From assembly GCF_963921235.1 (NCBI RefSeq), contig NC_086097.1, positions 25,608,001 to 25,672,000 on the forward strand: a stretch of 64,000 bases of DNA, written 5' to 3'. Both the position numbers and the translations under genes were made by a program. Below are positions 4,001 to 59,800 of the stretch, one piece after another. Position 1 is the stretch's first letter. Every line of letters begins with the position of its first letter. This DNA is from Mobula hypostoma. Its lineage: Eukaryota. Under the pieces are notes generated by a model. It saw only the letters and a list, made by a program, of their open reading frames with translations, was not told the origin of the DNA and searched no databases.

Positions 4001-4420
4001 TCTATCAGCGGATTTGCTTAAACTTTCAATATCATTTATTTTCACCCCAGCCACACTGTCAGCTCTGGCACTCTGGTTCCCATCCCCCTGCAAATCTAGT
4101 TTAAAGCCTCCCCAATAGCACTAACAAACCTCCCTGAAAGGATATTGGTCCCCCTGTGGTTCAAGTGTAACCCGTCTCTCTTGTACAGGTCCCACCTGCC
4201 CCAGAAGAGGTCCCAATGATCCTGAAATCTGAAACCCTGCCCCCTACACCAGTTCCTCAGCCACTTGTTCCTCCTCCAGAGCATCCTATTCCTACCCTCA
4301 CTGGCACCTAGCACAGGTAGCAATCCTGAGATTACCACCCTTGAGGTCCTGCTTTTCAACTTCCTACCAAGCTCTCTATACTCACTGTCCAGGACCTCTT
4401 CACTCTTCCTTGCTATGTCA
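1093..4420 (-). mobile_element. CR1 LINE family A copy 1, 5'-truncated: SGNH-esterase end of ORF1, APE endonuclease and RT
   Basis: ORFs 4096..4455 (RDGLHLN), 3392..4093 (YFNARS, ETWL, GDFN), 3014..3391 (SDH) and 1168..3051 ([13 protein letters not shown]). Tail is (TTCTATGG)n. Confidence 0.95.
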
Positions 4421-6467: not shown

Positions 6468-7780
6468 TAAACACAAACAACAGGAATTCTGCAGATGCTG
6501 GAAATTCAAGCAACACACACTGACTCTCACAGCTATCTGGACTATTCCTCTTCTCACCCTGTCTCTTGCAAAAACGCCATTCCCTTCTCGCAATTCCTCC
6601 GTCTCCGCCACATCTGCTCTCAGGATGAGGCTTTTCATTCTTGGACGAGGGAGATGTCTTCCTTTTTTAAAGAAAGGGGCTTCCCTTCCTCCACTATCAA
6701 ATCTGCTCTTAAACGCATCTCCCCCATTTCACGTACATCTGCTCTCACTTCATCCTCCCACCACCCCACTAGGAATAGGGTTCCCCTGGTCCTCACCTAC
6801 CACCCCACCAGCCTCCGGGTCCAACATATTATTCTCCGTAACTTCCGCGACCTCCAACGGGATCCCACCACTAAGCACCTCTTTCCCTCCCCCCCCTGCA
6901 TTCCGCAGGGATCGCTCCCTACACAACTCCCTTGTCCATTCGTCCCCCCCATCCCTCCCCACTGATCTCCCTCCTGGCACTTATCCGTGTAAGCGGAACA
7001 AGTGCTACACATGCCCTTACACTTCCTCCCTTACCACCATTCAGGGCCCCAAACAGTCCTTCCAGGTGAGGCAACACTTCACCTGTGAGTCGGCTGGGGT
7101 GATATACTGCGTCCGGTGCTCCCGATGTGGCCTTTTATATATTGGTGAGACCCGATGCAGACTGGGGGACCGCTTTGCTAAACATCACGCTCTGTCCGCC
7201 AGAGAAAGCAGGACCTCCCAGTGGCCACACATTTTAATTCCACATCCCATTCCCATTCTGACATGTCTATCCACGGCCTCCTCTACTGTAAAGATGAAGC
7301 CACACTCAGGTTGGAGGAACAACACCTTATATTCCGTCTGGGTAGCCTCCAACCTGATGGCATGAACATCGACTTCTCTAACTTCCGCTAATGCCCCACC
7401 TCCCCCTCGTACCCCATCTGTTACTTATTTTTATACACACATTCTTTCTCTCACTCTCCTTTTTCTCCCTCTCTCCCTCTGAATATACCCCTTGCCCATC
7501 CTCTGGGTCCCGCCCCCCTTGTCTTTCTTCCCGGACCTCCTGTCCCATGATCCTCTCGTATCCCTTTTGCCTATCACCTGTCCAGCTCTTGGCTCCATCC
7601 CTCCCCCTCCAGTCTTCTCCTATCATTTTGGATCTCTCCCTCCCCCTCCAACTTTCAAATCCCTTACTCACTCTTCCTTCAGTTAGTCCTGACGAAGGGT
7701 CTCGGCCTGAAACGTCGACTGCACCTCTTCCTAGAGATGCTGCCTGGCCTGCTGCGTTCACCAGCAACTTTTATGTGTGC
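6468..7780 (+). mobile_element. Penelope-like element (Neptune type), 5'-truncated, with an inverted ~47-bp 3' terminus at its left end
   Basis: Frameshifted RT C-terminus, CKRNKCYTC motif and GIY-YIG (VIYCVRCSRCGLLYIGET). TSD TACATA(T/C)ATTGAATA at 6453-6467 and 7781-7795. Confidence 0.92.
7685..7720 (+). ncRNA. Minimal type I hammerhead ribozyme in the PLE pseudo-LTR
   Basis: AGTC-CTGACGA-AGG(GTCTCGG)CCT-GAAA-CG-TC^GACT. Core CUGANGA/GAAA/UH is intact, helix I is AGTC/GACT, and helix III is the palindrome ACGT. Predicted cleavage after C7716. Confidence 0.88.
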
Positions 7781-15580: not shown

Positions 15581-16659
15581 CCAGTTCTTAGAAGAGCTGC
15601 TTAATATTAAGAAGGCTGTGTCTGCTTAATATTTTTAAAAGGAGATTAATAACTAAAGCATCAATTGAAGTATAATTGACTGTAGGGGAAGTTGCAATAT
15701 CATAAATTTTCAATGAGAGTTTGCCAAATTTGAAATGCAAGATGTTCAACATCCTTCAGTAGCATAATGCACTTCTAAGGGCAACCAAAAGATTTAACAA
15801 GACTACACAAAACTGCATCTGTGGGAGAAAAGTGATTGTCAACATTATGGTCATTTCATCACAGTCATCTCCTACATTACCTGAGGGGTCCATGGACCCC
15901 AGGTTGTGAATCCCTGCTCAAGTAGGTTGTTATTTGGTTAAAAAAATTAAACCGATTAACTTCCAAACATGATTCTGCAATAAATTTGTTTATTTTTTTC
16001 TTTTTAATTTTTTTCTTCTGTAGACCATCTGCGGGGCTGTTAGCATTCAAAATATCCAAAATGAGGTGTGACAAGTAACAATACTGCAATATTGCAAGTA
16101 ACAAAATTGCTGGAATCTAGGACGAAAAGATGCTGCAGGAATTTAGTGGGACTGATAACTTCCATAAAGGGAAATGGACAGTTGACATTTCAGGTCAAGA
16201 TCATTCATCCAGATTGATGAAGGATGTCGATCGCAAATATAGGCTGTCCATTTGCCTCCACAAATGCTGCCCAACCCACTGATTTCCTCCAACTTTGCTC
16301 CAGTCTCTTGTTTCCAAACAGCTGTAGGAACTTAGAGGGACAGGCAGCATTTGTAGAGGGTAAATAGAGAGTTTTAGAACTGAACACTATCCCCAAAGGT
16401 CAATTATTGATCTGCACCCACAAATGCCACCTGACATGCTAACTTCCTCAAACAGTTTTTTGGTTAAAAAAAAATTAAACTATTTAACTTCTAAACTTGG
16501 TTCTGCGAGAACTGTTCATTTTAATTCTTTCATTTTAATTTTCTTTCATTTTAATTCTTTTTCTTTCTCCTGTTTCTTCTCCGATTGTCTAACACTTTCC
16601 TCTGACTTCCTAGATTTCCACATTCGATACAAATCGTAAATAACATCTCCTCTTTGCTG

Positions 16660-21597: not shown

Positions 21598-22869
21598 TGT
21601 GAGCATTATCTGCCACTGTAATATAGTAATGTCCAAACAAATGTGCAAAGCCAAATAACTTGTACAAGAAACAAAACACCCTCTGTAACTTTCATCACAG
21701 CACACGTTGCTTGAAGCAACATGTATGGAGGATACAATACACAGGATTGGAAAAAGCTGCAGAGGGTCATAAACTCAGCCAGTTCCATCATGGGCATAGT
21801 CTACCCAGCATCGAGGACATCTTCAAACGGCGAAGCCTCAAGAAAGTAACATCCATCATTAAAGATCCCCACCACCTAGGGCATGCCCTGTTCTTATTAC
21901 TACCATCAGGGAAGTAATATAGGATACTGAAGAAGTTCAAAGTAAATTTATTACTGAAGTACTTATATATCACTATATACTGACATCATCACTATATCTT
22001 GCGGGCATACTAGGGTGAAGAAGCTATTTAAGAACAACTTTCTCACTTCCCCCATCAGATTACTGATCAATGCATGGGCCCAAAAACATTCCCTCAACAT
22101 TTTGCTCTCGTTTTGCACAACTTATTTAATTTTTACATTTCTTATTATACTTACAGTATGTTTTATGCACTGGACTGGACTGGACTGCTGTTGCAAAACA
22201 ACACAGTGAGGGGGTCGGGGATTGTTATCGTGGCTGCTTTTTGCTGCAGGGAGCGGGGTTGTGCAAATATTGTTTTTTTTTCTTTTTGGTCTCGAGGGGT
22301 AGTTGACGTATTTTCTTTCATCAACACACATGGTCTTTCTGTATTTAATGCCTGTCTGGCGTGGACAAATATCCGAGCTGTATTGCACATGCACATTTTG
22401 ACAGTAACATTTGAATTTTATGACGTATGTCAGTGATAATAAACCTGATTCCAATTCTGAGATCTCGTGTAGAATTACATCAGTATATAATTAGTCCATT
22501 GTCATCTGTCAAAAGGTAGATAATATTTTCTTTTCAAATTAATAGTAATTAATGGAACTTCTTTCTGAAAATGACACTTCAAGTAGATAAAGTTGGGAAG
22601 AAGATGCAGCCTACATCATTCAGAGTCAGGAAGTTGTGTTACAGCTGTATAAAGATTTGATTACACAAGAGACTGCAGATGTTAGAATATGCAGCAACAA
22701 TTTGCTGGAGGAACTCAGTAGGTTGAGTAGCAGCTGTGGGAGGAAAGGAATTGTCAGTGAATTTAAGAGGAACTATCTATGTTTCGGGTACTGATGCAGG
22801 GTTTCAATGTGAAACTTCAACTGTTCCTTTTCCTCCAGAGATGCCACTCATCCCACTGAATTCCTCTAC

Positions 22870-25518: not shown

Positions 25519-25875
25519 CTTTTAAAAATAAATAGCAAAACTTAGACTTCAAATACCACAAGCACCAATTTTCAAACAGAACAATTCTTAAAAGAGATGC
25601 AGATTTGGAGAGTGAATAGAGATGTTTTCTGTTCCAACTATTTTAGATGAGTGTGTGTGTGAACAAAGATTACTAGGGTGTCAACAGGTTTGCATAAAGC
25701 AAAATCAAATACACCTGCACCAGTTGGGACAACACAACTCTACAGAGGCTAAAAAGAATCAGATTCTATTATTTCACAAACACGAGGAAATCTGCAGATG
25801 CAGGAAATTTAAGCAACACACACAAAAAATGCTGGTGAACGCAGCAGGCCAGGCAGCATCTATAGGAAGAAGTAC

Positions 25876-25912
25876 AGTCGACGTTTTCGGGCCAAGACCC
25901 TTCGTCAGGACT
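25876..25912 (-). ncRNA. Hammerhead ribozyme variant (one extra A after GAAA)
   Basis: Minus strand reads AGTCCTGACGAAGGGTCTTGGCCCGAAAACGTCGACT. Confidence 0.7.
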
Positions 25913-26827
25913 AACTGAAAGAAGAGATAGTAAGAGATTTGAAAGTGGGAGGGGGGGGGAGGGGGAGGGGGAGATCGGAAATGACAGGAGAAGACAGGAG
26001 GGGGAGGGATGAAGCTAAGTGCTGGAAAGTAGATTGGCAAAAGGGGTACAGAGCTGGAGAAGGGGGAGGATCATGGGATGGGAGGCCTAAGGAGAAAGAA
26101 AGGGGGAGGGAAGCCCAGAGGAAGATGGAGAGCAGGCAAGGAGTAATGTGAGAGAGAAAAAAGAGAAAACAAAAGGGGAGGGAAATAATAGATAAATAAG
26201 GGATGGGGTAAGAAGGGGAGGAGGGGCATTAATGGAAGTTAGAGAAATCAATGTTCATGCCATCAGTTTGGAGGCTATTCAGATGGAATACAAGGTGTTA
26301 TTCCTCCAACCTGAGTGTGGCTTCATCTTGACAGTAGAGGAACCCATGGATTGACATATCAGAATGGGAATGGGACATGGAATTAAAATGTGTGGCTACT
26401 GGGAGATCCTGCTTTCTCTGGCAGACAGAGCGTAAGTGTTCAGCGAAACAACACCTTATATCCTGTCTGGTAGCCTCCAACCTGATGGCATGAACATTGA
26501 TTTCTCTAACTTCCATTAATGCCCCTCCTCCCCTTCTGACCCCATCCCTTATTTATTATTCCCCTTTTTTTTCTTCTTTTTTCTCTCTCTGTCCCTCTCA
26601 CAATCACTCCTTGCCTGTTCTCCATCTTCCTCTGGGCTCCCCTCCCCCTTTCTTTCTCCCTAGGCCTCCCATCCCATGATCCTCTCCCTTCTCCAGCTCT
26701 GTATCCCTTTTGCCACTCAACTGTCCAGCTCTTAGCTCTATCCCTCCCCCTCCTGTCTTCTCCTATCATTTCGGGTCTCCCCCTCCCCCTCCCACTTTCA
26801 AATCTCTTACTAGCTCTTCTTTCAGTT

Positions 26828-26863
26828 AGTCCTGACGAAGGTTCTCGGCCTGAAACGTCGACT
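26828..26863 (+). ncRNA. Minimal hammerhead ribozyme
   Basis: AGTCCTGACGAAGGTTCTCGGCCTGAAACGTCGACT with an intact core. Confidence 0.85.
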
Positions 26864-27574
26864 GTACCTCTTCCTATAGATGCTGCCTGGCCTGCTGTGT
26901 TCCACCAGCATTTTGTGTGTGTTGCTTGAGATTCTATTATTTTATTATCTTCATGTATTTATGTTTGAATTTTGTAATATCCTGAAATCTGTAAATAGGT
27001 GTACAATGTGTCATACTAATTTGCCTGTATATAAGATTTTGGCTCTCAAAACCTTTAAAACTGAGAAGGGTTGCCAAATGTACAGATTTATGTACAAATA
27101 ATTTAGCAGCAGCAGATAGGGACACAAAAAACTGCAACACGACGAAGGAGGAGAGAGGATGGATCTCTGCTTTGAAACAATGAAACTTGGCATGAACATG
27201 ATCAGTAATAGGAAGCATGCGGTGTGCTCTGAACAACTGTGGTAGAGGCCCACAAAAATATGCTCCAATCTCCTGCAGGAGTGGTCACATGGATAAACTT
27301 TACACCATTATTAATCACACATTGAGATTCATTACCGGTCCCACAGTTTTAAATCACAAAGTGTGCAGTTTGTGACCTCCTGAGTGATCTAGGGCTATCC
27401 TCTTTGGAGTAAAAGAGGATGAGAGGTGACTCGATAGAAGTGTACAAGATGATAAGAGGCATAGATGCAGTGAATGGCCAGAGACTTTTTCCCAGGGCAG
27501 AAACAGCTAATACGAGTCATAAACTTAAGGCATTACAAAAGTTCAAAGTTCAAAGCAAATTTATTATGTAAGTA

Positions 27575-27879
27575 TGTACCCCTTGCCCATCCTCTGGGTT
27601 TTCCCCCCTCCCCCCTTTCCTTCTCCCTGGGCCTCCTGTCCCATGATCCTCTCATATCCCTTTTGCCAATCACCTGTCCAGCTCTTGGCTCCATCCCTCC
27701 CCCTCCTGTCTTCTCCTATCACTTCTGATCTCCCCCTCCCCCTCCCACTTTCAAATCTCTTACTAACTTTTCCTTCAGTTAGTCCTGACGAAGGGTCTCG
27801 GCCCGAAACGTCGACCGTACCTCTTCCTAGAGATGCTGCCTGGCCTGCTGCGTTCACCAGCAACTTTGATGTGTGTTGC
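27575..27879 (+). mobile_element. PLE pseudo-LTR-only insertion (no inversion) with hammerhead at 27781-27816
   Basis: Matches 7490-7780. TSD TTTATTAT(G/C)TAAGTA at 27560-27574 and 27880-27894. Confidence 0.88.
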
Positions 27880-29965: not shown

Positions 29966-32723
29966 GATCCAAGCATCTACCTGAGCTATAACATTTGCCC
30001 CTTTTTTCTCTGAGCCTTTATTATCCATGTACCTCTCCACTTTCTTCACAATATTACAACACCCCAATAAATTGCTCATTTGAACACGGAGAAAAAGCTT
30101 TAAAATGACCTGCAACACCACTCCAAGGTGAGGATGGCATGGTAGGACAGCAGTCAGCATAACACTTTACAATGCCAGCGAACTAGTTTCAATCCCCACA
30201 ACTGTCTATAAAATTGTACATTTTCCCCATGACTGTGTGGGTTTCCTCCGGATGCTCTGGTTTTCTCCCACACACCAAAGATGCATGTATTAGTAAATCG
30301 TGGGCATGTTGGTGCTGGAAGCATGGCAACATTTGCAAGCTGACCCCAGCACTTTCTCGGGCTGTGTTGGTCATTGACACACACAATGCAGTTAGCTGTA
30401 TGCTTCAGTATACATGTGACAACTAAGGCTAGTCTTTTCTCTCAGAGTTGTACAGCATAGAAACAGAGCCTTCAGCTCAACTCGTCCATGCTGTCTGGGC
30501 TAGTCCATTGGCCTACGTCATGTCGCAACTCCAAAACCAGGGGCTTTGGCCTGTGCAGAACACTAGCAGAAAACCACAAAGGATGGCTAGACTGGAGATA
30601 AAGAATATTACAGCACAGTATGGGCCCTTTAGCCCACAATGTTGTGCCGACCTCTTAACGACCTTCTAACCCTTTCCTGTTGCAAGAAGTATGAAATGTT
30701 GAGAACGGAGTATGAAGAAGCAAAGTAGTATGGATTCATTGGCTTCCCAGGACCCAAAATGCATCAGTGTGTGATTATAAACACAATAGATTATGCAGAA
30801 GCTGGAAAGTTTAAGCAACACACACAAAATGCTGAAGGTACTCAGCAAGTCGAGCAGCATCCATGCAGGGCATAAGCAGTTTAGATTTCGGGCCAATGAA
30901 GGCCACTCCTTAGATGCTGCCTGACTTGCTGAGTTCCTCCAGTATTTTGTGAGTGTTACTCAGTGGGTGATTGTATGTGCCCAGCACACAGTGATTAAAT
31001 AGTAAAAGTGAAGGACAACTCAAGACACCATTCACACACAAGCATGTTCGTTTTGAGATGCTGCGCATATCTGATGCCAGCACATACTTCCCTGTCCACC
31101 TCACTCTTCACAGCACTAAATCCATTCACTGCAAAATGTGATTTAACAATAAAAGACAGTTCCTATGTTTAAGGTATAATGGGTTTCAACTGCAGCTAAC
31201 ACACTTTCTGTCCAATGATCAATACTTAACTGCTAGGACCAGTAGTGTTACTGTTACTCTCCTGTCAGGTCAGAGGAGCTTAATATATAACACTGCAAAA
31301 AGATTTATTGACTCAAAGGTTGGCTTTATTACAATTTGACATTGCTTTAGTAACAAAGCTTGATATTTATAAAATTTAAACCGCAGCCTCAGCTCAAAGT
31401 TGAAAAGCTAGAAAGAAATTGTCAGATGTTTAGCTCAGGAACATTGGGTTTGATTGTGAGTGCCTTCACAATGTCACAACACTTATTAGTTCTCCATCTG
31501 AACACAAGGCAAAGACATAAAGTGACTGAAGGTGCCAAGCCCGGACAGTACAAGGACGGTGCGGGGATGGATAGCCTTGGAACTTCAATGATATGCTTCA
31601 TGTCAGCCATCCTGTGCATACCATCCAAAGAAAGGTGAATCAGTAAAACATCACCCTGCTGTTTGAAGCATTGTGTGATCACTGTACGGATGGCATCTAA
31701 ATTAAATGTTAGAAATTCACTGTATAAAATGCTGAAAGTAGATTTCACAGTACAATGTGTATTATAAATAAGATTTTTCTTTCCTACCCCAAGAAAGTAA
31801 CGCATTTTAATAGTGTCTGTTCTTTTGTGCAGCACCCAGCTGAAGGTGAGCAACAGACAGAAAATGAGAAACAAACATCCTCAATCCATATTTGGTCATT
31901 ATAAAGTGAGAAGGAACCCCCACTGACACTAGCTGCAAAGCAGCAAAGGTCTCTTATGAAGGCAAGGTGTGGAAAAAACAAGAGGAATTGGATTAAAGTT
32001 CCCTGAATACAGTGTAGTCAGGAAAGGAGAGTCATGTCAGCACTGAATAGGGGAATGTTCCAGTGCCAAAGAGAGGATATGCTGGAGCAATCAAAGGAAA
32101 GATATGCTTAAAGGGAAAAAAAAATCAGGGATGCAGTGATACCACTCCAAGTATTCAACAGGTACCAACTAGTGGAATGATGCTGAAGAACAAATTTACA
32201 GGGAATTACCAGTTGTGAAAATAATAGTGGATTTGAACTATCCAAACATTAGGTTGGGTTAGACCAATCAGCAAGGAAGTGGGTGGGATTGAGGGTCAGA
32301 AAGAGGAAGAGAGAGACATACAGAGAGAGGGAGAGAGATTCAAGATTGTTTAATGTCAGTTCCTGGACACAAGTGTAAAAACAACAAAATAATTGTTACC
32401 CTGGATCCAATGCAGCACAAAAAAAGAACACAATAATGATACTAAAAATAGAGGGCTATGCACTAGGGAAATTCTAGGCAGTTTCTAGAGTAGGTTACAT
32501 GGTTAGCGCAACATTGTGGGTCAAAGGGCCTGTATGTAATGTGCTGTAAATTTCTATGTTCTATGTTTAAAAAAATACACACAATATGAAGAATTAAAAA
32601 AGCTTACAATACCATCCAAAAGCTGTATGTATATATGTGCCTAAGACTTTGGCACTGTACTGTATATACATATATTGATCAGATTGACAACTGCAAATGC
32701 ACAATGGGAAGTCTTTAAAATGG

Positions 32724-32883
32724 AAACAACAGGAATACTGCAGATGCTGGAAATTCAAGCAACACACATCAAAGTTGCTGGTGAACGCAGCAGGCCAGGC
32801 AGCATCTGTAGGAAGAGGTGCAGTCGACATTTCAGGCCGAGACCCTTCGTCAGGTCTCGGCCTGAAACGTCGACTGCACCTCT
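32724..32883. mobile_element. Miniature fold-back PLE tail insertion (160 bp)
   Basis: The minus arm runs from the 3' terminus into the hammerhead, then a short plus arm follows. TSD TCTTTAAAATGG at 32712-32723 and 32884-32895. Confidence 0.88.
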
Positions 32884-34206: not shown

Positions 34207-34362
34207 AAAAAGCAGAATTTGTTACATTTACAGAGTAAGTTCAGTGTGCAGATGGACAATAAGGTGTAAGGGCCATGAGCGGGTAAATTGAGTTCAAGGG
34301 TTAACATACAACATATGTTTATGGTACAAGATATCTGTTCAAGATCTTTTAACAATGAGATA

Positions 34363-34753
34363 CACTCAGTGGTCACTTTATAAGGTACAGGAAGTACCTA
34401 ATAAAGTGGCCACTGAGTGTATGTTCAAGGTCTTCTGCTGCTGTAGCCCATCCACTTCAAGCTTCAACGTGTTGTACACCCAGAGGTATTCTTCCGCACA
34501 TCGCTGTTGAGGCACATGATAATTTGAGTTACGGTTGGCATCAGTCTGAACCAGTCTGGCCATTCTCCTCCGACCTCTCTTATTAACAAAGCATTTTCAT
34601 TCATAGAAATGCTGCTCACTGAATGTTACTTTGTTATTCACACCATTCTCCGTACATCCTGGAGACAGCTGTGCATGAAAATCCCAGGAGATAGCAGATA
34701 TTTGCATTAACAAGCAGGTGCAGATGTGTACCTAATAAAGTGGCCACTGAGTG
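34363..34753 (-). mobile_element. Internally deleted Tc1/mariner element
   Basis: TA-flanked ~28-bp TIRs CACTCAGTGG(T/C)CACTTTAT(A/T)AGGTAC and a frameshifted transposase remnant (MARLVQTD...). An extra TIR copy sits at 34394-34419. Confidence 0.8.
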
Positions 34754-34767
34754 TAGAAGCTAACACG

Positions 34768-35801: not shown

Positions 35802-36499
35802 TAACCTTCAGCCTGATAGTACAATTCTCAAGCTTTTCTATCTTCTGCCTGGAGAAAAGAGAATGACCATGATGAGAGGGGTCTTTGATTATGCCGGCTG
35901 CTTATCCTAGGCAGTAATAGGGGATTCGATTGTAAGGGGAATAGATAGGCATTTCTGCGGCCGCAAACGAGACTCCAGGAAGGTATGTTGCCTCCCTGGT
36001 GCAAGGGTCAAGGATGTCTCTGAGCGGCTGCAGAACATTCTGGAGTGGGAGGGTGAACAGCCAGTGGTCGTGGTGCACATAGGTACCAACGATATAGGTA
36101 AAAAACGGGATGAGGTCCTACAAGGCGAATTTAGGGAGTTAGGAGATAAGCTAAAAAGTAGGACCACAAAGGTAATAATCTCTGGATTACTACCAGTGCC
36201 ACGTGCTAGTCAAAGTAGAAATAGGAGGATATCTTAGATGAATATGTGGCTTGAAAAATGGTGCAAGGAGGAGGGATTCAAATTTCTGGGGCATTGGAAC
36301 CAGTTCTGGAGGAGGTGGGACCGGTACAAACAGGACGGTCTGCACCTGGGCTGGACTGGAACCAATGTCCTAGGGGGAGCATTTGCTACTGTTGTTCAGG
36401 AGGATTTAAACTAATGTGGCAGGGGGATGTGAACAAGTGCAGAGAGACAGAGGGGTGTGAAATGAGGGTAGAAGCAAAAAGTAGTAAGGTGAAAAGTAA

Positions 36500-36721
36500 G
36501 CAACACACATCAAAGTTGCTGGTGAACGCAGCAGGCCAAGCAGCATCTATAGGAAGAGGCGCAGTCGACGTTTCAGGCCGAGACCCTTCGTCCTGACGAA
36601 GGGTCTCGGCCTGAAACGTCGACTGCGCCTCTTCCTATAGATGCTGCTTGGCCTGCTGCGTTCACCAGCAACTTTGATGTGTGTTGCTTGAATTTCCAGC
36701 ATCTGCAGAATTCCTGTTGTT
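36500..36721. mobile_element. Miniature palindromic PLE insertion centred on a hammerhead
   Basis: Perfect ~93-bp inverted arms around ...CTTCGTC CT GACGAAG... plus the 3' terminus. TSD TAAGGTGAAAAGTAA at 36485-36499 and 36722-36736. Confidence 0.93.
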
Positions 36722-38672
36722 TAAGGTGAAAAGTAAAGTGGCTGGCCGGCAAATCCAGGGCAAAAATCAAAAAGGGCCACTTTTCAACATAATTGTATAA
36801 GGGCTAAGAGTGTTGCAAAAGCAAGCCTGAAGGCTTTGTGCGTCAATGTAAGGAGCAGTTGTAACAAGGTGGATTGAATGTGCAGATAGTTAGTAATAGA
36901 ACCATAGAACCATAGAAACTACAGCACAGAAACAGGCCCTTTGGCCCTTCTTGGCTGTGCCGAACCATTTTCTGCCTAGTCCCACTGACCTGCACACGGA
37001 CCACATCCCTCCATACACCTCCCATCCATGTATCTGTCCAATTTATTCTTAAATGTTAAAAAAGAACCCGCATTTACCACCTCGTCTGGCAGCTCATTCC
37101 ATACTCCCACCACTCTCTGTGTGAAGAAGCCCCCCCTAATGTTCCCTTTAAACTTTTCCCCCTTCACCCTTAACCCATGTCCTCTGGTTTTTTTCTCCCC
37201 TTGCCTCAGTGGAAGAAGCCTGCTTGCATTCACTCTATCTATACCCATCATAATTTTATATACCTCTATCAAATCTCCCCTCATTCTTCTACGCTCCAGG
37301 GAATAAAGTCCTAACCTATTCAACCTTTCTCTGTAACTGAGTTTCTCAAGTCCCGGCAACATCCTTGTAAACCTTCTCTGCACTCTTTCAACCTTATTTA
37401 TATCCTTCCTGTAATTTGGTGACCAAAACTGAACACAATACTCCAGATTCAGCCTCACCAATGCCTTATACAACCTCATCATAACATTCCAGCTCTTATA
37501 CTCAATACTACGATTAATAAAGGCCAATGTACCAAAAGCTCTCTTTACGACCCTATCTACCTGTGACGACACTTTTAGGGAATTTTGTATCTGTATTCCC
37601 AGATCTCTCTGTTCCACTGCACTCCTCAGTGCCTTACCATTAACCCTGTATGTTCTACGTTGGTTTGTCCTTCCAACGTGCAATACCTCACACTTGTCAG
37701 TATTAAACTCCATCTGCCATTTTTCAGCCCATTTTTCCAGATGGTCCAAGTCCCTCTGCAGGCTCTGAAAACCTTCCTCACTGTCTACTACACCTCCAAT
37801 CTTTGTATCATCAGCAAACTTGCTGATCCAATTTACCACATTATCATCCAGATCATTGATATAGATGACAAATAACAATGGACCCAGCACTGATCCCTGT
37901 GGCACACCACTAGTCACAGGCCTCCACTCAGAGAAGCAATTTTCTACCACCACTCTCTGGCTTCTTCCATCGAGCCAATGTCCAATCCAATTTACCACCT
38001 CTCCATGTATACCTAGCGACTGAATTTTCCTAACTAACCTCCCATGCGGGACCTTGTCAAAGGCCTTACTGAAGTCCATGTGGACAATCTCCACTGCCTT
38101 CCCTTCATCCACTTTCCTGGTAACCTCCTCGAAAAACTCCAACAGATTGGTCAAACATGACCTACCACGCACAAAACCATGTTGACTCTCCCTAATAAGC
38201 CCCTGTCTATCCAAATGCTTGTAGATTCTGTCTCTTAGTACTCTCTCCAATAACTTACCTACTACTGACGTTAAACTCACCGGCCTATAATTTCCCAGAT
38301 TACTTTTCGATCCTTTTTTAAACAACGGAACAACATGAGCCATTCTCCAATCCTCCGGCACTTCACCCGTAGACAGCGACATTTTAAATATTTCTGCCAG
38401 GGCCCCCGCAATTTCAACACTAGTCTCCTTCAAGGTCCGAGGGAACACCCTGTCAGGTCCCAGGGATTTATCCACTTTAATTTTCCTCAAGACAGCAAGC
38501 ACCTCCTCCTTTTCAATCCGTACAGTTGCCATGGTCTCACTACTTGATTCCCTCAATTCCATAGATTTCATCGCAAACAACAGGAATTCTGCAGATGCTG
38601 GAAATTCAAGCAACATACATCAAAGTTGCTGGTGAACGCAGCAGGCCAAGCAGCATCTATAGGAAGAGGCGC

Positions 38673-38708
38673 AGTCGACGTTTCAGGCCGAGACCCTTCG
38701 TCAGGACT
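38673..38708 (-). ncRNA. Minimal hammerhead ribozyme (inverted arm)
   Basis: Minus strand reads AGTCCTGACGAAGGGTCTCGGCCTGAAACGTCGACT. Confidence 0.88.
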
Positions 38709-39375
38709 AACTGAAGGAAGAGTGAGTAAGGGATTTGAAAGCTGGAGGGGGAGGGGGAGATGCAAAATGATAGGAGAAGACAGGAGGGGGAGGGATAGAG
38801 CCGAGAACTGGACAGGTGATAGGCAAAAGGGGATACGAGAGGATCATGGGACAGGAGGTCCGGGAAGAAAGACAAGGGGGCGGGGGGGGTGACCCAGAGG
38901 ATGGGCAAGAGGTATATTCAGAGGGACAGAGGGAGAAAAAGGAGAGTGAGAGAAAGAATGTGTGCATAAAAATGAGTAACAGATGGGGTACGAGGGGGAG
39001 GTGGGGCCTTAGCAGAAGTTAGAGAAGTCGATGTTCATGCCATCAGGTTGGAGGCTACCCAGACGGAATATAAGGTGTTGTTCCTCCAACCTGAGTGTGG
39101 CTTCATCTTTACAGTAGAGGAGGCCGTGGATAGACATGTCAGAATGGGAATGGGATGTGGAATTAAAATGTGTGGCCACTGGGAGATCCTGCTTTCTCTG
39201 GCGGACAGAGCGTAGATGTTCAGCAAAGCAGTCTCCCAGTCTGCGTCGGGTCTCACCAATATATAAAAGGCCACATCGGGAGCACCGGACGCAGTATATC
39301 ACCCCAGTCGACTCACAGGTGAAGTGGTGCCTCACCTGGAAGGACTGTTTGGGGCCCTGAATGGTGGTAAGGGAG

Positions 39376-39531
39376 GACCTATGTTCGTGATATCACCCCT
39401 TGTTCAATCCCTTCCGACCTATGTTCGTGATATCACCCCTTGTTCAATCCCTTCCGACCTATGTTCGTGACATACCTCGACACTGTTTTATCACCCCTTG
39501 TTCAATCCCTTCCGACCTATGTTCGTGACAC
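39376..39531 (+). repeat. Tandem 40-bp repeats at the PLE inversion junction
   Basis: Unit GACCTATGTTCGTGATATCACCCCTTGTTCAATCCCTTCC at 39376 and 39416, partial at 39456; the native copy is at about 39489-39531. Confidence 0.95.
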
Positions 39532-40954
39532 TTCTCACGCTCTTAAACTTTTCGATGATTTTAAGTTCCCTGGCCCCCACCGCTTTATTTTCACCATGGA
39601 TGTCCAGTCCTTATATACTTCCATCCCCCATCAGGAAGGTCTCAAAGCTCTACGCTTCTTTTTGGATTCCAGACCTAATCAGTTCCCCTCTACCACCACT
39701 CTGCTCCGTCTAGCGGAATTAGTCCTTACTCTTAATAATTTCTCCTTTTGCTCCTCCCATTTCCTCCAAACTAAAGGTGTAGCTATGGGCACCCGTATGG
39801 GTCCTAGCTATGCCTGCCTTTTTGTTGGGTTTGTGGAACAATCTATGTTCCGTGCCTATTCTGGTATCTGTCCCCCACTTTTCCTTCGCTACATCGACGA
39901 CTGCATTGGCGCTGCTTCCTGCACGCATGCAGAACTCGTTGACTTTATTAACTTTGCCTCCAACTTTCACCCTGCCCTCAAGTTTACCTGGTCCATTTCC
40001 GACACCTCCCTCCCCTTTCTAGATCTTTCTGTCTCTGTCTCTGGAGACAGCTTATCCACTGATGTCTACTATAAGCCTACTGACTCTCACAGCTATCTGG
40101 ACTATTCCTCTTCTCACCCTATCTCTTGCAAAAATGCCATCCCCTTCTCGCAATTCCTCCGTCTCCGCCGCATCTGCTCTCAGGATGAGGCTTTTCATTC
40201 TAGGACGAGGGAGATGTCTTCATTTTTTAAAGAAAGGGGCTACCCTTCCTCCACTATCAACTCTGCTCTTAAACGCATCTCCCCCATTTCACGTACATCT
40301 GCTCTCACTCCATCCTCCCACCACCCCACTAGGAATAGGGTTCCCCTGGTCCTCACCTACCACCCCACCAGCCTCCGGGTCCAACATATTATTCTCCGTA
40401 ACTTCCGCCACCTCCAACGGGATCCCACCACTAAGCACATCTTTCCCTCCCCCCCCTCTGCATTCCGCAGGGATCGCTCCCTACACAACTCCCTTGTCCA
40501 TTCGTCCCCCCCATCCCTCCCCACTGATCTCCCTCCTGGCACTTATCCGTGTAAGCGGAACAAGTGCTACACATGCCCTTACACTTCCTCCCTTACCACC
40601 ATTCAGGGCCCCAAACAGTCCTTCCAGGTGAGGCATCACTTCACCTGTGAGTCGACTGGGGTGATATACTGCGTCCGGTGCTCCCGATGTGGCCTTTTAT
40701 ATATTGGTGAGACCCGACGCAGACTGGGAGACCGCTTTGCTGAACATCTACGCTCTGTCCGCCAGAGAAAGCAGGATCTCCCAGTGGCCACACATTTTAA
40801 TTCCACATCCCATTCCCATTCTGACATGTCTATCCACGGCCTCCTCTACTGTAAAGATGAAGCCACACTCAGGTTGGAAGAACAACACCTTATATTCCGT
40901 CTGGGTAGCCTCCAACCTGATGGCATGAACATCGACTTCTCTAACTTCCGCTAA
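39440..40954 (+). CDS. PLE RT plus GIY-YIG endonuclease ORF (N-terminally truncated, otherwise uninterrupted)
   Basis: TMDVQSLYTSIPH, QTKGVAMGTRMGPSYA, RYIDD and LPFLD motifs; CKRNKCYTC linker (Cys motif typical of the Neptune group); VIYCVRCSRCGLLYIGET...RFAEH. The first ~10 residues come from junction repeats. Confidence 0.93.
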   Translation: MFNPFRPMFVTYLDTVLSPLVQSLPTYVRDTSHALKLFDDFKFPGPHRFIFTMDVQSLYTSIPHQEGLKALRFFLDSRPNQFPSTTTLLRLAELVLTLNNFSFCSSHFLQTKGVAMGTRMGPSYACLFVGFVEQSMFRAYSGICPPLFLRYIDDCIGAASCTHAELVDFINFASNFHPALKFTWSISDTSLPFLDLSVSVSGDSLSTDVYYKPTDSHSYLDYSSSHPISCKNAIPFSQFLRLRRICSQDEAFHSRTREMSSFFKERGYPSSTINSALKRISPISRTSALTPSSHHPTRNRVPLVLTYHPTSLRVQHIILRNFRHLQRDPTTKHIFPSPPSAFRRDRSLHNSLVHSSPPSLPTDLPPGTYPCKRNKCYTCPYTSSLTTIQGPKQSFQVRHHFTCESTGVIYCVRCSRCGLLYIGETRRRLGDRFAEHLRSVRQRKQDLPVATHFNSTSHSHSDMSIHGLLYCKDEATLRLEEQHLIFRLGSLQPDGMNIDFSNFR

Positions 40955-41247
40955 GGCCCCACCTCCCCCTCGTACCCCATCTGTTACTCATTTTTATGCA
41001 CACATTCTTTCTCTCACTCTCCTTTTTCTCCCTCTGTCCCTCTGAATATACCTCTTGCCCATCCTCTGGGTCACCCCCCCCCGTCTTTCTTCCCGGACCT
41101 CCTGTCCCATGATCCTCTCGTATCCCCTTTTGCCTATCACCTGTCCAGCTCTCGGCTCTATCCCTCCCCCTCCTGTCTTCTCCTATCATTTTGCATCTCC
41201 CCCTCCCCCTCCAGCTTTCAAATCCCTTACTCACTCTTCCTTCAGTT

Positions 41248-41283
41248 AGTCCTGACGAAGGGTCTCGGCCTGAAACGTCGACT
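41248..41283 (+). ncRNA. Minimal hammerhead ribozyme (sense arm)
   Basis: AGTCCTGACGAAGGGTCTCGGCCTGAAACGTCGACT. Confidence 0.88.
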
Positions 41284-44200
41284 GCGCCTCTTCCTATAGA
41301 TGCTGCTTGGCCTGCTACGTTCACCAGCAACTTTGATGTATGTTCCATAGATTTCATGCCAGCTTCCTTAGTAAATACAGACGCAAAAAACCTGTTTAAG
41401 ATCTCCCCCATTTCTTTTGGTTCCGCACAAAGCCGACCACTCTGATCTTCAAGAGGACCAATTTTATCCCTTACAATCCTTTTGCTCTTAATATACTTGT
41501 AAAAGCTCTTTGGATTATCCTTCACTTTGACTGCCAAGGCAACCTCATGTCTTCTTTTTGCCCTCCTGATTTCTTTCTTAAGTATTTTCTTGCACTTCTT
41601 ATACACCTCAAGCACCTGATTTACCCCGTTTCCTATACATTTCATACAACTCCCTCTTCTTCTTTATCAGAGTTGCAATATCCCTTGAGAACCAAGGTTC
41701 CTTATTCCTATTCAATTTGCCTTTAATCCTGACAGGAACATACAAACTCTGCACTCTCAAAATTTCCCTTTTGAAGACTTCCCACCTACCAATCACATCT
41801 TTGCCAGTGTCCCAATCCACGCTTTTTAGATCCTTTCTCATTTCTTCAAATTTGGCCTTCTTCCAGTTCAGAACCTCAACCCTAGGACCAGATCTATCCT
41901 TGTCCATGATCAAATTGAAACTAATGGCGTTATGATCACTGGAACCAAAGTGTTCCCCTACACAGACTTCTGTCACTTACCCTAATTCGTTTCCTAACAG
42001 GAGATCCAATATTGCATCCCCTCTAGTTGGTCCCTCTATATACTGATTTAGAAAACTTTCCTGAACACATTTTACAAACTCTAAACCATCTAGACCCCTA
42101 ACAGTATGGGAGTCCCAATCAATGTATGGAAAATTAAAATCCCCTACCACCACAACTTTATGTTTCCTGCAGTTGTCTGCTATCTCTCTGCAGATTTGTT
42201 CTTCCAAGTCTCGTTGACTATTGGGTGGTCTGTAATACAATCCCACTAATGTGGCCATACCTTTCCTGTTTCTCAGCTCCACCCATAAGGACTCAGTAGA
42301 CAAGCCCTCTAATCTGTCCTGCCTGAGCACTGCTGTAATATTTTCCCTAACAAGCAATGCTACTCCCCCACCTTTCATTCCTCTGCCTCGATCACATCTG
42401 AAACATCGGAACCCTGGAATATTAAGCTGCCAGTCCTGCCCCTCCTGTAGCCAAGTTTCACGAATTGCTACAACATCATAATTCCACGTGTCAATCCACG
42501 CCCTCAACTCATCCGCCTTCCCCGCAATACTCCTAGCATTGAAATATATACACCTCAGAAGATTTTTACCACCACTCACAACCTTTCTATCAGCAAATTT
42601 GCTTAAACTTTCAATATCATTTATTTTCACCCCAGCCACACTGTCAGCTCTGGCACTCTGGTTCCCATCCCCCTGCAAATCTAGTTTAAAGCCTCCCCAA
42701 TAGCACTAACAAACCTCCCTGAAAGGATATTGGTCCCCCTGTGGTTCAAGTGTAACCCGTCTCTCTTGTACAGGTCCCACCTGCCCCAGTAGAGGTCCCA
42801 ATGATCCTGAAATCTGAAACCCTGCCCCCTACACCAGTTCCTCAGCCACTTGTTCCTCCTCCAGAGCATCCTATTCCTACCCTCACTGGCACCTAGCACA
42901 GGTAGCAATCCTGAGATTACCACCCTTGAGGTCCTGCTTTTCAACTTCCTACCAAGCTCTCTATACTCACTGTCCAGGACCTCTTCACTCTTCCTTGCTA
43001 TGTCATTGGTGCCTATGTGCACCACGACATCTGGCTGGTCACCCTCCCACTTCAGAATGTCATGCAATCAATCAGAGACATCCTTGACCCTGGCACCTGG
43101 GAGGCAACGAACCATCCTGGATTCTCTGTCACGACCACAGAACCTCCTATCTGCACCTGTAACTATCGAGTCCCCTATCACTACCGCTCTCCTCTTTAGC
43201 TTTTAATGAATATGATATAGTTGGGATCACAGAGACATGGCTCCAGGGTGACCAAGGATGGGAGATCAACAGGGGATATTCAATATTCAGGAGGGATAGA
43301 TATGAAAGAAAAGGAGGTGGGGTGGCATTGCTGGTTAGAGAGGAAATTAACACAATGGAAAGGAAGGACATTAGCCGGGAGGATGTGGAATCGATATGGG
43401 TAGAGCTGCATAACACTAAGGGGCAGAAAACGCTGGTGGGAGTTGTGTACAGGCCACCTAACAGTAGTAGTGAGGTTGGGGATGGCATTAAACAGGAAAC
43501 TAGAAATGCGTGCAATAAAGGAACAGCAGTTATAATGGGTGACTTCAATCTACATATAGATTGAGTGAACCAAATTGGTAAGGGTGCTGAGGAAGAGGAT
43601 TTCTTGGAATGTATGCAGGATAGTTTTCTGAACCAACATGTCGAGGAACCAATTAGAGAGCAGGCCATTCTGGACTGGGTATTGAGCAATGAGGAAGGGT
43701 TAGTTAGCAATCTTGTCGTGCGAGGCCCCTTGGGTAAGAGTGACCATAATATGGTAGAATTCTTCATTAAGATGGAGAGTGATATAGTTAATTCAGTAAC
43801 AAAGGTTCTGAACTTAAAGAAGGGTAACTTTGAAGGTATGAGACGTGAATTAGCTAAGATAGACTGGCAAATGATACTTAAAGGATTGACGGTGGATATG
43901 CAATGGCAAGCATTTAAAGATCACATGGATGAACTACAACAATTGTTCATCCTAGTTTGGCAAAAGAATAAACTAGGGAAGGTAGTGCACCCGTGGCTGA
44001 CAAGCGAAATTAGGGATAGTATCAATTCCAAAGAAGAAACATACAAATTAGCCAGAAAAAGTGGCACACCTGAGGACTGGGAGAAATTCAGTGTCCAGCA
44101 GATGAGGACAAAGGGCTTAATTAGGAAAGGGAAAAAAGATTATGAGAGAAAGCTGACAGGGAACATAAAAACTGACTGTAAAAGCTTTTACAGATATGTG

Positions 44201-56800: not shown

Positions 56801-59800
56801 AATCTAAAATCTTCCCTCTGTTTTAACCAGATTTTCTCCCAGTTTCTATATTTCCTATAGCAATATTTTTTCATATAATTTTTTTTTAAGTCTAAGAGAA
56901 GATTTCCAGGTTATCAGTCCTGATCTGGAAAACACAACAGTGACTGACTGCTCATTGTCATTTCATCTTAAGTGATTTAAGACAGCGTTCCCTTCATAAA
57001 TTGTGCTAACATCAATTCTCAAGTTCACACCATGCTGACACCACATGAGATTTTGATCTTTCATTGCATCTTGAATTCTTATTTCTGGTCTATCAGATCT
57101 TTGATTTCTCTTCTGTTTTGAAACAATGAGATTTAATGTAAAACATAGATTTTTATTATTCTATTTATAGAGGTCAGAGAGAGGAAGAAATCCCTATCAC
57201 ACATGCCAAAAGTTATTGATTACAACTGGGAGTAGCATAATCAGAAAGGTCAACTCCTCGAACAGCAAGTGAAGTATTACAATATTGTCTGCTAATTGGA
57301 GGCTAAGGCTTATTCAGGCTCTGTCTGCTAACCTTCAAGTACTTTGCCAAGTCAATAGTAAACAATCCCGACAGCTTGCACCATCCATTTCTATTGTACA
57401 TTGCTTGTAAGGGTAATGAGAAATCCTCTTTCCCTTCTCTGCACTTTATCCATTTATAAATCTGCTCAGTGACTACTCCAGGGAATATTAAACATCCATC
57501 TCCAATCCAATCTCCCACAGATTGTATACCACGATTACACAAATAAATGGTTTTGGTCTCACTCAACAACTGATCGGGATTATAGCTCCTCTGTGGTTAG
57601 TGACCTGACCAAACTATTTACTTTTTTATTTTATTCTTGCAGATTCTCTACTAGTTTCCCCTCCCTGCAGATACCACTCATAGTTCACATTCCAATTTAC
57701 TTATCACATGTACATTGAACATAAAGTGAAATGCACCCCTTACCTCTCTTCCTCTCTCCCAACCCCCCAGACACACACACACACAGTCCTCAACCCCTCA
57801 ACCCCAGGACAGGACTCCAGGCTTTGGCCATTGGACTATGACTTCCGGACTTCCAATCGACCTTCGATCTTTGGTTATCAACCACCAGAATAGCCAATTA
57901 GCCAATGATGGGACTCGCAGGTCAAAACTCCAAGAGTGCCTGGCCTTTTGAGCACAAAGCGGAGACCTTGACTCTGGATGCCCTTTGCTACCGGTCCAAG
58001 TCACTGGCCTTCAATCTGCAGAGCAGGGGTCTGACTCCATTCATACTCCATTGTTCCACAGATAGCAAGCACCATTCAGTATCTTGTTCGGGGGGCAAAT
58101 TTAGAAAGCCATACAGCATGGAAACAAGACATTTTGCCCAGCACGTCTATGCTAACCCAATGTTGCAGCACTTGGCCTAGACTCCAATGCCTAGGCAATT
58201 CAAGTGCTCAATTAAACATTTATGAATACTGTCAGTGACCCTGCCTACACCACTTTCTCGTTGGGCCTTAAGGGCCAGTTACCATGCTGTATCTCTAAAT
58301 AAAATATGAATGGGTACCTACTGATCAGTATGAAAGTGATGAGCTGAATGACCTGTTTTGAAGTTGCATAACCCTATTTTAATCAAGCCGTAGAACAGGC
58401 TCATTAGGTCGAATGATTTCTGCTGTTTCTGGCAAAGTTTGCACGAATAATTCCTCAGATATTTCTTTTAATCCATCCGCAGCATGAGAACATTACTGGC
58501 AAGGTCAGCATTTGTAGTCCATCCTTACTTAGCCGGAAACTGAGGGATAAGAATCAATCACAATGATGCTCTGGGGTCACTTACAGACCAGTCTAGGTAA
58601 AAATGATCAACTTGTTTCTGAAAGCCATTAGTGAAGCAGAAGGCTTTATATGACGACTGCTACTTTCATGGTTATTGTTAAGACTAGCTTATTTTTATTT
58701 CCAAACTTATTTAATTACTTAATTTTAAATTCCCCAGCTGCCATGGTTGGATTCAAACTCATGTTTCTGGCTCAGTGATCCGGAACTCTGGCTGCAAGTG
58801 CAATAGCTTAATAATACTATGTTCTTGTGTACGCACTAATCTGAATCAATGATAGAGTAGAGCACAGATTTCTTGTTTCAGAAATGAAACAAAAAGAAAC
58901 TAGAGTCCCTCAGCCGTTCATTAGGCTTAACATGAATTAGTAAAAGCTAGACATACGTACATTTTAAATGCATGGAGAATTTCTGCCTTCAAGTGATGAC
59001 ATTTGCACTCAATAGGTTCATTATGCCGATGGCATTTCAGTTGCTTGATGGAATGAAAATATATTTTTTATATATTAAAAAAAATTAACCTTTCTTCAGT
59101 TTACTAATTCAAAACCATGGGCAACCTACAACGATGTTTAAAAGTTTTATTTAAATGAGTTTATAAACTAGGATTGGGTGATATTATTTAGAAGGTCAAT
59201 CTCGATACAAGGGGATATACAGTCAATCCACGGATTATAGTGCAAACAAAAGCAAATTTCTGTAGGAACTTCTGCAGGTCCTCAGTCGGCATTTTGGGTT
59301 GAGATTGTTCATCTGGTCCAGAAACATTGACTGTCAATTTCCCTCCATAGATGCTGCCATACCCGAGGAGTTCCTCAAGCATTTTGTTTGTTGAGGCAGA
59401 GAGATAGTCAACATTTCAGATGCGAACATGCATCAGGAAAGAAATGACAATCATCCCTTGTGTCTCTACAGATGCTGCATGACTCACTGAGTTTTGCCAG
59501 CAGTTTGTTTTTTTTCCCCCCCCCCCCATTTATTTTTATTGAGATGCTCTTCTGGCCCAACAAACCCATGCCAGCCATGTGACTAATTAACTCACCAACC
59601 TGTAGTCTTTGGAGTGTGGGAGGAAACTGGAGCAACTGAAGAAAACCCACAAGGTCTTGAAGAGAACATAAAAATTCCTTACAGACAGCAGTGGAATTGA
59701 ACCCAGGTTGCTGGCACTGTAATAGCGTTATACTAACCCACCATACTGCCGTGCTGCTCCTCCAGAATCCAGCACCTACAGTCTCTGGTATCTCCACAAA

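Follow-up and report, generated by a model that had tools for sequence, protein, structure and literature searches.

Introduction

What does a short, almost fully self-complementary element with a hammerhead core at its centre represent: a self-propagating family that resembles MITEs or retrozymes, or a by-product of retrotransposition, and does the ribozyme itself decide where such a copy ends? This question is raised by a hairpin at positions 36485-36736 of a 64-kb stretch of DNA (the window, by which we mean the whole stretch that was analysed). A sequence-only reading had described it as a 222-bp perfect palindrome with its own TSD, and had proposed that the ribozyme structure or cleavage region is a hotspot for RT termination and arm joining.

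PLE insertions in which an inverted truncated copy is accompanied by a one-sided tail and a TSD have already been described (PMC8557442, PMC3846280; Goubert 2022, PMC8969392). Craig et al. 2021 (PMC8557442) report an inverted 5'-truncated copy plus a 30-40-bp tail, and Arkhipova et al. 2013 (PMC3846280) an inverted pLTR with a 31-bp tail and a 9-bp TSD. Cervera and de la Pena 2014 (PMC4209133) found pairs of minimal hammerheads on opposite strands, 100-700 bp apart, as well as many single motifs from truncated PLEs. For PAc Poseidon of Anolis, both target strands are cut and extended in vitro, a dimer is predicted, and two RT start sites bound the tail (Frangieh et al. 2024, PMC11167929). The assembly of tandem and inverted PLE structures and of their tails is named as unresolved in PMC11167929 and PMC8557442, and the former leaves aside arm joining and in vivo cDNA stops.

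Results

The hairpin consists of two PLE 3' ends

The element proper spans 36500-36721 (222 bp) and lies between exact 15-bp repeats on the plus strand, at 36485-36499 and 36722-36736; the last two nucleotides of the left repeat also match the element end (microhomology). This 15-mer cannot be extended any further, occurs only twice in the window, and would match by chance with a probability of about 1e-6 even when a 30x30 search box is allowed for, so that the exact TSD claimed for the element stands. The arms are complementary without mismatch over 95 bp (36498-36592 with 36595-36689), that is, the 93 bp around a central CT that had been noticed before plus 2 bp that overlap the TSD, and none of 200 shuffled sequences folded equally well (z = -30). 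However, only about 188-192 bp of the element are palindromic. The final 32-34 nt (from 36688 or 36690 to 36721) are present on one side only and have no pairing partner, and the element is therefore not a 222-bp palindrome.

This one-sided extension (36688-36721, plus strand) is the PLE 'tail', comparable to the 30-40-bp tail of PMC8557442. With signed positions counted from the C of the hammerhead's CUGA as 0 (36593 in the hairpin), the remainder resolves into a tail-bearing arm on the plus strand (36590-36721) and a tail-less inverted arm on the minus strand (36500-36592), which runs from +2 to about +95 and is without C3-U4 of the hammerhead, its cut site being intact. Both are PLE 3' ends, the tail-bearing one with a single difference at 95 positions from the arm 38572-39377 of a longer copy (38572-41342), and both accommodate a 3-nt overlap, GTC, at 36590-36592. 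The hairpin is two PLE 3'-end copies head to head, one with a tail and one without, between 15-bp TSDs. As such, the sequence-only reading was correct in holding these hairpins to be merely MITE-looking products of retrotransposition, but it overlooked that a one-sided tail with an inverted arm is the published PLE insertion pattern, which is present at all sizes in the window.

The insertion lies within a decayed LINE (35910-36900, plus strand), which we take to be of the CR1 type and which matches, at 72.8%, the region upstream of an Exo_endo_phos ORF. In translation, the insertion site falls between an ORF1 remnant, presumably 'esterase'-like, and the start of the endonuclease frame. The repeats of the window as a whole resemble those of a cartilaginous fish. 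A further palindrome of the window, at 34360-34422 (63 bp, 29-bp arms), is not related to PLEs; an exact 28-nt copy of one of its arms is found 334 nt away, at 34728-34755.

Larger and smaller copies share the same plan

Three long two-arm copies in the window are built like the hairpin, from a tail arm, an inverted tail-less arm and a TSD. That at 38572-41342 combines an 806-nt tail arm (minus strand) with a 1967-nt tail-less arm (plus strand), and a LINE copy of 98.5% identity, in which the corresponding site near 2752 is empty, bears out its 15-bp TSD. The other two, at 6476-7780 and 25775-26928, have tail arms of 44 and 676 nt, tail-less arms of 1262 and 482 nt, and TSDs of 15 bp (one mismatch) and 14 bp, respectively. 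The tail-less arm is thus the longer one in two of the three copies (44/1262 and 806/1967), and the tail of 32-34 nt again occurs on one arm only in the other two-arm copies of the window. At the small end, the 160-bp sister at 32724-32883 has a tail arm of about 131 nt, an inverted arm of 31-33 nt that starts at +10, a GG overlap and a 12-bp TSD, and does fold back inside the ribozyme as had been noted; an older-subfamily fold-back at 30777-30959 is centred on a decayed ribozyme, with a one-sided tail and a 13-bp TSD (one mismatch). Of the 10 loci tested in the window, 7 have a TSD of 12-15 bp, one of them checked against an empty site, and a TSD search at six older PLE loci of the window found none (0/6). 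Junction overlaps measured 3, 2 and 1 nt at three of the five junctions tested, the other two being such that our script could not anchor them.

The tail-less arm of the long copy contains an RT and GIY-YIG frame (39431-40954) from which the 5' part of the ORF is absent. Pfam identified RVT_1 (E 4e-5) and GIY-YIG (E 4e-4), both under the curated cut-offs, and the parent ORF had atlas matches at 0.97 to animal RT/HTH/GIY-YIG clusters. A C-x4-C-x2-C stretch precedes its GIY-YIG domain, and a Cys-rich motif between RT and EN is the criterion for Neptune (PMC8557442, PMC3846280); judged by this motif, the parent is probably a Neptune-type PLE.

Several other arrangements in the window deserve mention. 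The head-to-head junction of the long copy (39376-39531) contains three repeats of the tail-less arm's start, spaced by 40 and 58 nt, which resembles repeated re-priming. At 27574-27879, a 306-nt tail-less arm sits within a 15-bp TSD (one mismatch) with only about two extra bases and no tail-bearing partner. Old, decayed fold-back pairs directly adjoin each other at 16124-16459 and 59250-59510, which suggests insertion into or beside earlier copies. Furthermore, the LINE copies 1093-4420 and 36901-43005 are 98.5% identical and have long open frames, the second carrying the long PLE and the first representing its empty site; both the LINE and the PLE family look recently active.

The junction lies outside the ribozyme's cleavage region

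A putative minimal type I hammerhead extends over 36590-36625 on the plus strand, with the 5' strand of helix I, CUGAnGA, helix II, GAAA, a palindromic ACGU helix III and the 3' strand of helix I, the cut falling after 36620. This designation is based on the motif together with the published description of minimal hammerheads (PMC4209133); an Rfam search of the whole window gave no match at gathering score, and the core pattern matched six times in the window against 0.01 expected, each time within a copy of the hairpin's PLE family. The central CT of the hairpin (36593-36594) corresponds to C3-U4 of the core. As the sequence-only reading had it, the plus strand retains a full core (CUGAnGA-helix II-GAAA-CGUC) with a helix I of 3 bp, compared with four Watson-Crick pairs and one G-U in the parent, and the minus strand has lost the CUGA, reading AGGA in its place.

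The same reading had also pointed to the cleavage region as the hotspot. The junction, however, precedes the GUC cleavage site by 26-28 nt, with that site preserved in either arm, and hence lies outside that region. In addition, folding locks the core within a 92-bp duplex of -204 kcal/mol, so that self-cleavage (as a dimer) is not expected of a full hairpin transcript. A different arrangement was seen at 38674-38708, where a joint going back 35 nt, an apparent tandem duplication of the ribozyme core alone, occurs in contigs of three organisms (X1, X5, X9); such a minimal head-to-tail pair of cores could form a dimeric hammerhead.

PLE arms tend to end in a zone upstream of the ribozyme

By nhmmer, 17 PLE-end loci were identified in the window, and 10 of them have an arm that ends between -6 and +22. 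Among these are the old fold-backs at 16124-16296, 22697-22868, 30777-30959 and 59250-59389. The old copies are 60-80% alike and their ends accordingly imprecise, and one of the queries began at -5; on the other hand, this census was not tied to the ribozyme core.

A generic hammerhead core pattern yielded at least 123 metagenome loci, mostly AT-rich host DNA from other organisms. For 29 of the 123 listed loci, tblastn gave matches to the window's ORF that typically end about 85-185 nt upstream of the core, which identifies the loci as related PLEs. After seven were dropped as representing the same locus, 116 remained, of which 25 lacked a relative, 50 had to be censored and 41 could be called, a 5' end being called only against a closer, longer relative. 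Of these ends, 28 (out of 41) fall 2-22 nt upstream of the CUGA, corresponding to 28 of the 80 copies at risk in that zone, as against 3/48, 0/39 and 2/39 in the following three bins. Compared with the region of 26-100 nt (5 ends in 126 bin-risks) this gives a Fisher p of 4e-9 when loci are treated as independent, which those of the same family are not. Stricter similarity cuts left 25 of 37 and 16 of 24 ends in the zone.

Tail-bearing and tail-less arms end alike, with 14 of 20 each in the same zone, despite starts about 50 nt apart. This indicates that the stop is fixed on the RNA, and is set neither by the distance copied nor by the length of the insert. The script that sorted the arms misfiled at least three tail-bearing ones (L047, L071 and L011, by eye), one locus was set tail-less by hand (L115) and one was left out because its downstream sequence is lacking (L040); the corrected numbers, 15/23 and 13/17, do not change the result.

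A self-palindrome centred within 16 nt of the CUGA was present at 13 of the 123 listed metagenome loci and at none of 53 control loci (genome_contigs), 12 of which do have some inverted repeat, none centred on the motif. Among 18 hand-picked inverted metagenome loci, eight have a TSD of 12-16 bp where one would be expected, together with a one-sided tail. None of 13 further palindromes in the flanks of the metagenome loci was ribozyme-centred, and exact family patterns had no match in viral_contigs or metagenome_contigs.

Could this pile-up have arisen artificially, from the search pattern, from a bias of short-read assembly towards short copies, or because sequence upstream of the ribozyme diverges faster? 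The pattern requires an intact core, and therefore ends downstream of the CUGA could not be sampled in the metagenomes; moreover, in many contigs the sequence breaks off 10-60 nt upstream of the core, and subfamilies differ in their upstream sequence. Against this, a closer and longer relative was required for each call, the result is stable at three similarity cuts, and copies in the pile-up are no more diverged than others (1.70 versus 1.76 score per nt). Arms of differing total length share the same end position, hairpins mark their own junction, and the window census is independent of the core. We therefore regard an artefact as quite unlikely. The proposal of a hotspot, with junctions distributed non-uniformly along the pseudo-LTR, is thus upheld by 10 of 17 window loci and 28 of 41 metagenome ends, but the hotspot is not the cleavage region, since both arms cross the cut site and ends accumulate 5' of the whole ribozyme.

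Two side observations concern the metagenome loci. Most long copies of the AT-rich families have CG-rich alternating runs in the pLTR, at about -50 to -110 from the CUGA, which look promoter-like. Furthermore, two genome_contigs loci (L142, L144) are on contigs of bacterial metagenome-assembled genomes and their hammerhead motif is preceded by a PLE frame of animal type (tblastn E 1e-63 and 1e-5); they are probably host DNA binned into a bacterial genome.

Probably two cDNAs rather than one

We consider it likely that the hairpin is a dead-on-arrival minimal insertion of an endonuclease-bearing PLE, built by two cDNAs that stopped upstream of the CUGA. The RT-GIY-YIG protein would nick both target strands about 15 bp apart, and one cDNA would be primed per nick, one at the outer and one at the inner RT start site, these sites bounding the tail. 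Both cDNAs would continue past the cut site and through the ribozyme, to halt about 0-22 nt upstream of the CUGA, after which their 3' ends, GAC and GTC, may anneal via 3 nt and be filled in to give a near-symmetric hairpin. Pairing of two such ends reproduces the observed junction exactly. The 3-nt GTC overlap exists because the parent reads GTC-CT-GAC; mini inverted repeats of this kind are not special, as 13 occur in a 799-nt arm.

Alternatively, a single cDNA could have snapped back and primed the second arm itself, which would need only one RT start. The identity of the arms (93/93 nt) agrees with this, as do symmetric hairpins that lie far from the zone (L080, L040, L026) and suggest that arms are coupled rather than independent. 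At the 32724 junction, too, an 8-nt loop would be feasible, and one arm there is short. At the 36593 junction, on the contrary, snap-back requires a 2-nt loop, and folding the last 30 nt of the cDNA never gave that hairpin (-1.0 to -2.8 kcal/mol across end positions). Neither can it yield tail-less arms longer than the tail arm, for which a second RNA-templated synthesis is needed, and it leaves unexplained that the ends of tail-less arms fall within about 15 nt of one another. We therefore think snap-back an unlikely origin for the hairpin, and adhere to the two-cDNA reading. For the 32724 copy, whose short arm starts off the inner start site as would fit snap-back, and for symmetric hairpins away from the zone, it is possible.

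What halts the two cDNAs?

The sequence-only reading held the ribozyme responsible, in that its folding or cleavage would stop the RT and trigger arm joining. Indeed, the pile-up tracks the position of the ribozyme in many families with differing upstream sequence, no other shared landmark was found at the zone in 21 long metagenome copies (neither an initiator nor a splice acceptor marks it consistently), and the parent can form a stem-loop over -22..+11. The ends, however, are on the far side, where the RT has already passed the ribozyme, and a block by structure would be expected at the 3' foot of the helices. Both arms retain an uninterrupted cut site, and the parent region folds no better than shuffled sequences (z +0.88). 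In vitro, furthermore, hammerhead mutants did not alter product size, product length tracked the template's 5' end, the main template was uncut RNA, and none of the RNA-seq reads had an end at the cut site (PMC11167929). On balance, it seems rather improbable that the ribozyme acts in this manner.

Our tentative preference, at somewhat less than an even chance, is that the stop is the 5' boundary of the template, whether a transcription start or a splice-related end. Such a boundary fits ends located past the ribozyme, in vitro synthesis that reads on to the template's 5' end whether or not the ribozyme is mutated, and the acceptor- and initiator-like sequence of the parent. This candidate 3' splice site (41228-41245, plus strand) comprises a branch-point-like word, a pyrimidine run and CAG, and overlaps an initiator-like TCAGTT, 6-8 nt before the CUGA; it was picked out by its likeness to the splice and initiator consensus motifs. 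A GT donor for it was not found. Two joints that skip the 3' UTR, 38708-39021 and 38704-39031, were considered as spliced forms and rejected, as their ends are not GT-AG and a donor was not found at the ORF end. The D. virilis PLE offers an argument in each direction: its intron ends at helix I (PMC4209133), in agreement with an RNA boundary, whereas its start site is 46 nt upstream of the 75-nt intron, i.e. about 120 nt upstream on the DNA and not beside the ribozyme (Schostak 2008, PMC2377424), which counts against a boundary at the zone. Awkward for a transcription start, too, is an open ATG at -22 to -33 in two metagenome families, upstream of the zone and with a frame that runs through the ribozyme. 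The main rival to the RNA boundary, which we find conceivable though doubtful, is release of the RT after a folded ribozyme or protein-bound domain; other causes come behind these two.

In each of the four runs that were inspected, sequencing depth falls about twofold immediately upstream of the ribozyme. We did not use this as evidence, as depth recovers at a greater distance and does not measure copy number.

Dead end or family?

Ends upstream of the ribozyme together with junctions that differ between loci speak for dead-end products, left by a stop that recurs and joined through 2-3 nt of microhomology, rather than for a retrozyme or MITE family that propagates itself. Of the two possibilities that the sequence-only reading had left side by side, it is thus the dead end that gains support, and a retrozyme-like family is disfavoured by differing junctions, the head-to-head arrangement and the buried ribozyme. 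A family of non-autonomous hairpins mobilised by the PLE protein would be consistent with a young unit that retains the tail and a complete plus-strand core, the more so as pLTRs can mobilise cargo in trans (PMC3846280) and PLE-derived retrozymes exist (10.64898/2026.07.22.740005). Opposed to it is the junction itself: several loci with an identical one had been proposed as the sign of self-propagation, and that of the hairpin was seen at 1 of 17 window loci. The test is not decisive, because a hotspot and the GTC-CT-GAC microhomology of the parent would recreate the junction independently. Still, the 13 ribozyme-centred hairpins among the 123 listed metagenome loci differ in their centres from locus to locus, also within one family. 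Retrozymes are moreover head-to-tail, and the core is held in the -204 kcal/mol duplex. The family is very large, with 211,994, 113,098, 64,946 and 14,160 contigs of the four runs matching the monomer; only one strand-changing joint is among the 15 listed of 579, and the weak observation can be added that the hairpin's junction is absent from these 15 and that none of those in the DNA runs (run type guessed) had high depth. Taken together, a self-propagating family appears highly improbable.

The hairpin, then, is a real, young and ordinary PLE insertion at the small end of the known size range, and most likely a dead end. It is probably inert.

Discussion

The single hairpin is ordinary, and it is the stop zone common to several families that is worth following. 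A stop that is fixed on the RNA upstream of the ribozyme, and common to the two types of arm as well as to distant families, directly constrains the mechanism of PLE insertion, and can be examined in the existing in vitro PLE system. Stubs that end just upstream of the ribozyme hint at where copying usually stops. In the literature searched, mostly the text of open-access articles, we did not find a clustering of arm 5' ends just upstream of a PLE hammerhead.

More speculatively, and with considerable reserve, we suggest that PLEs of vertebrates and invertebrates might share a programmed intermediate akin to a 'strong stop'. The RT would start in the upstream pLTR on either side of the tail and run off at an RNA boundary just 5' of the hammerhead, whereupon two cDNAs, one per nick, would be joined head to head by microhomology. 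If true, short hairpins would be a genomic record of the RNA 5' boundary and of a two-subunit, two-primer insertion, readable in PLE-rich genomes without RNA data. At a more practical level, PLE stubs are abundant, with 17 PLE loci in 64 kb, and annotation would mistake them for MITEs or retrozymes.

MITEs are class II elements whose terminal inverted repeats are symmetric, whose TSD is short and of fixed length, and whose many copies are alike in length and structure; in the window, the form of the hairpin was seen at 1 of 17 loci. Like them, the hairpin is short, hairpin-shaped, non-coding and flanked by a TSD. Unlike them, it has asymmetric ends owing to the one-sided tail, a long TSD of variable length (12-15 bp) and arms derived from the 3' end of a retroelement, and sizes differ between loci. 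With non-LTR retrozymes (10.64898/2026.07.22.740005) it shares a non-coding, PLE pLTR-derived sequence and a type I hammerhead, but where these consist of head-to-tail units with a ribozyme in each, the hairpin is one head-to-head pair with one core.

The ribozyme motif resembles the minimal type I hammerheads of PMC4209133 in its core nucleotides (CUGAnGA and GAAA), in helices I and II, with a short helix I, and in a palindromic helix III that needs a dimer. It departs from them in that the junction trims helix I to only 3 bp, the partner arm is without CUGA and the core is part of a long duplex. As for PAc Poseidon, RT would start internally at two sites that bound the tail, in vitro for PAc and presumed for the hairpin, and the PAc ribozyme is located about 110 nt upstream of the inner start (PMC11167929). 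The parent of the hairpin seems to be from a different clade, with a Cys-rich RT-EN linker that is Neptune-like by motif.

The hairpin agrees closely with the complex insertions of EN+ PLEs (PMC3846280, PMC8557442). An inverted, 5'-truncated copy joined at the 5' end, a tail of 30-40 nt on one arm, a TSD, a junction overlap, a pLTR hammerhead and a single-ORF parent that encodes RT with a GIY-YIG domain at the C terminus are all found here as well. The hairpin differs from the published complex insertions in its arms of only about 95-130 nt, which contain no ORF, and in TSDs of 12-15 bp compared with 8-10 bp in the rotifer examples.
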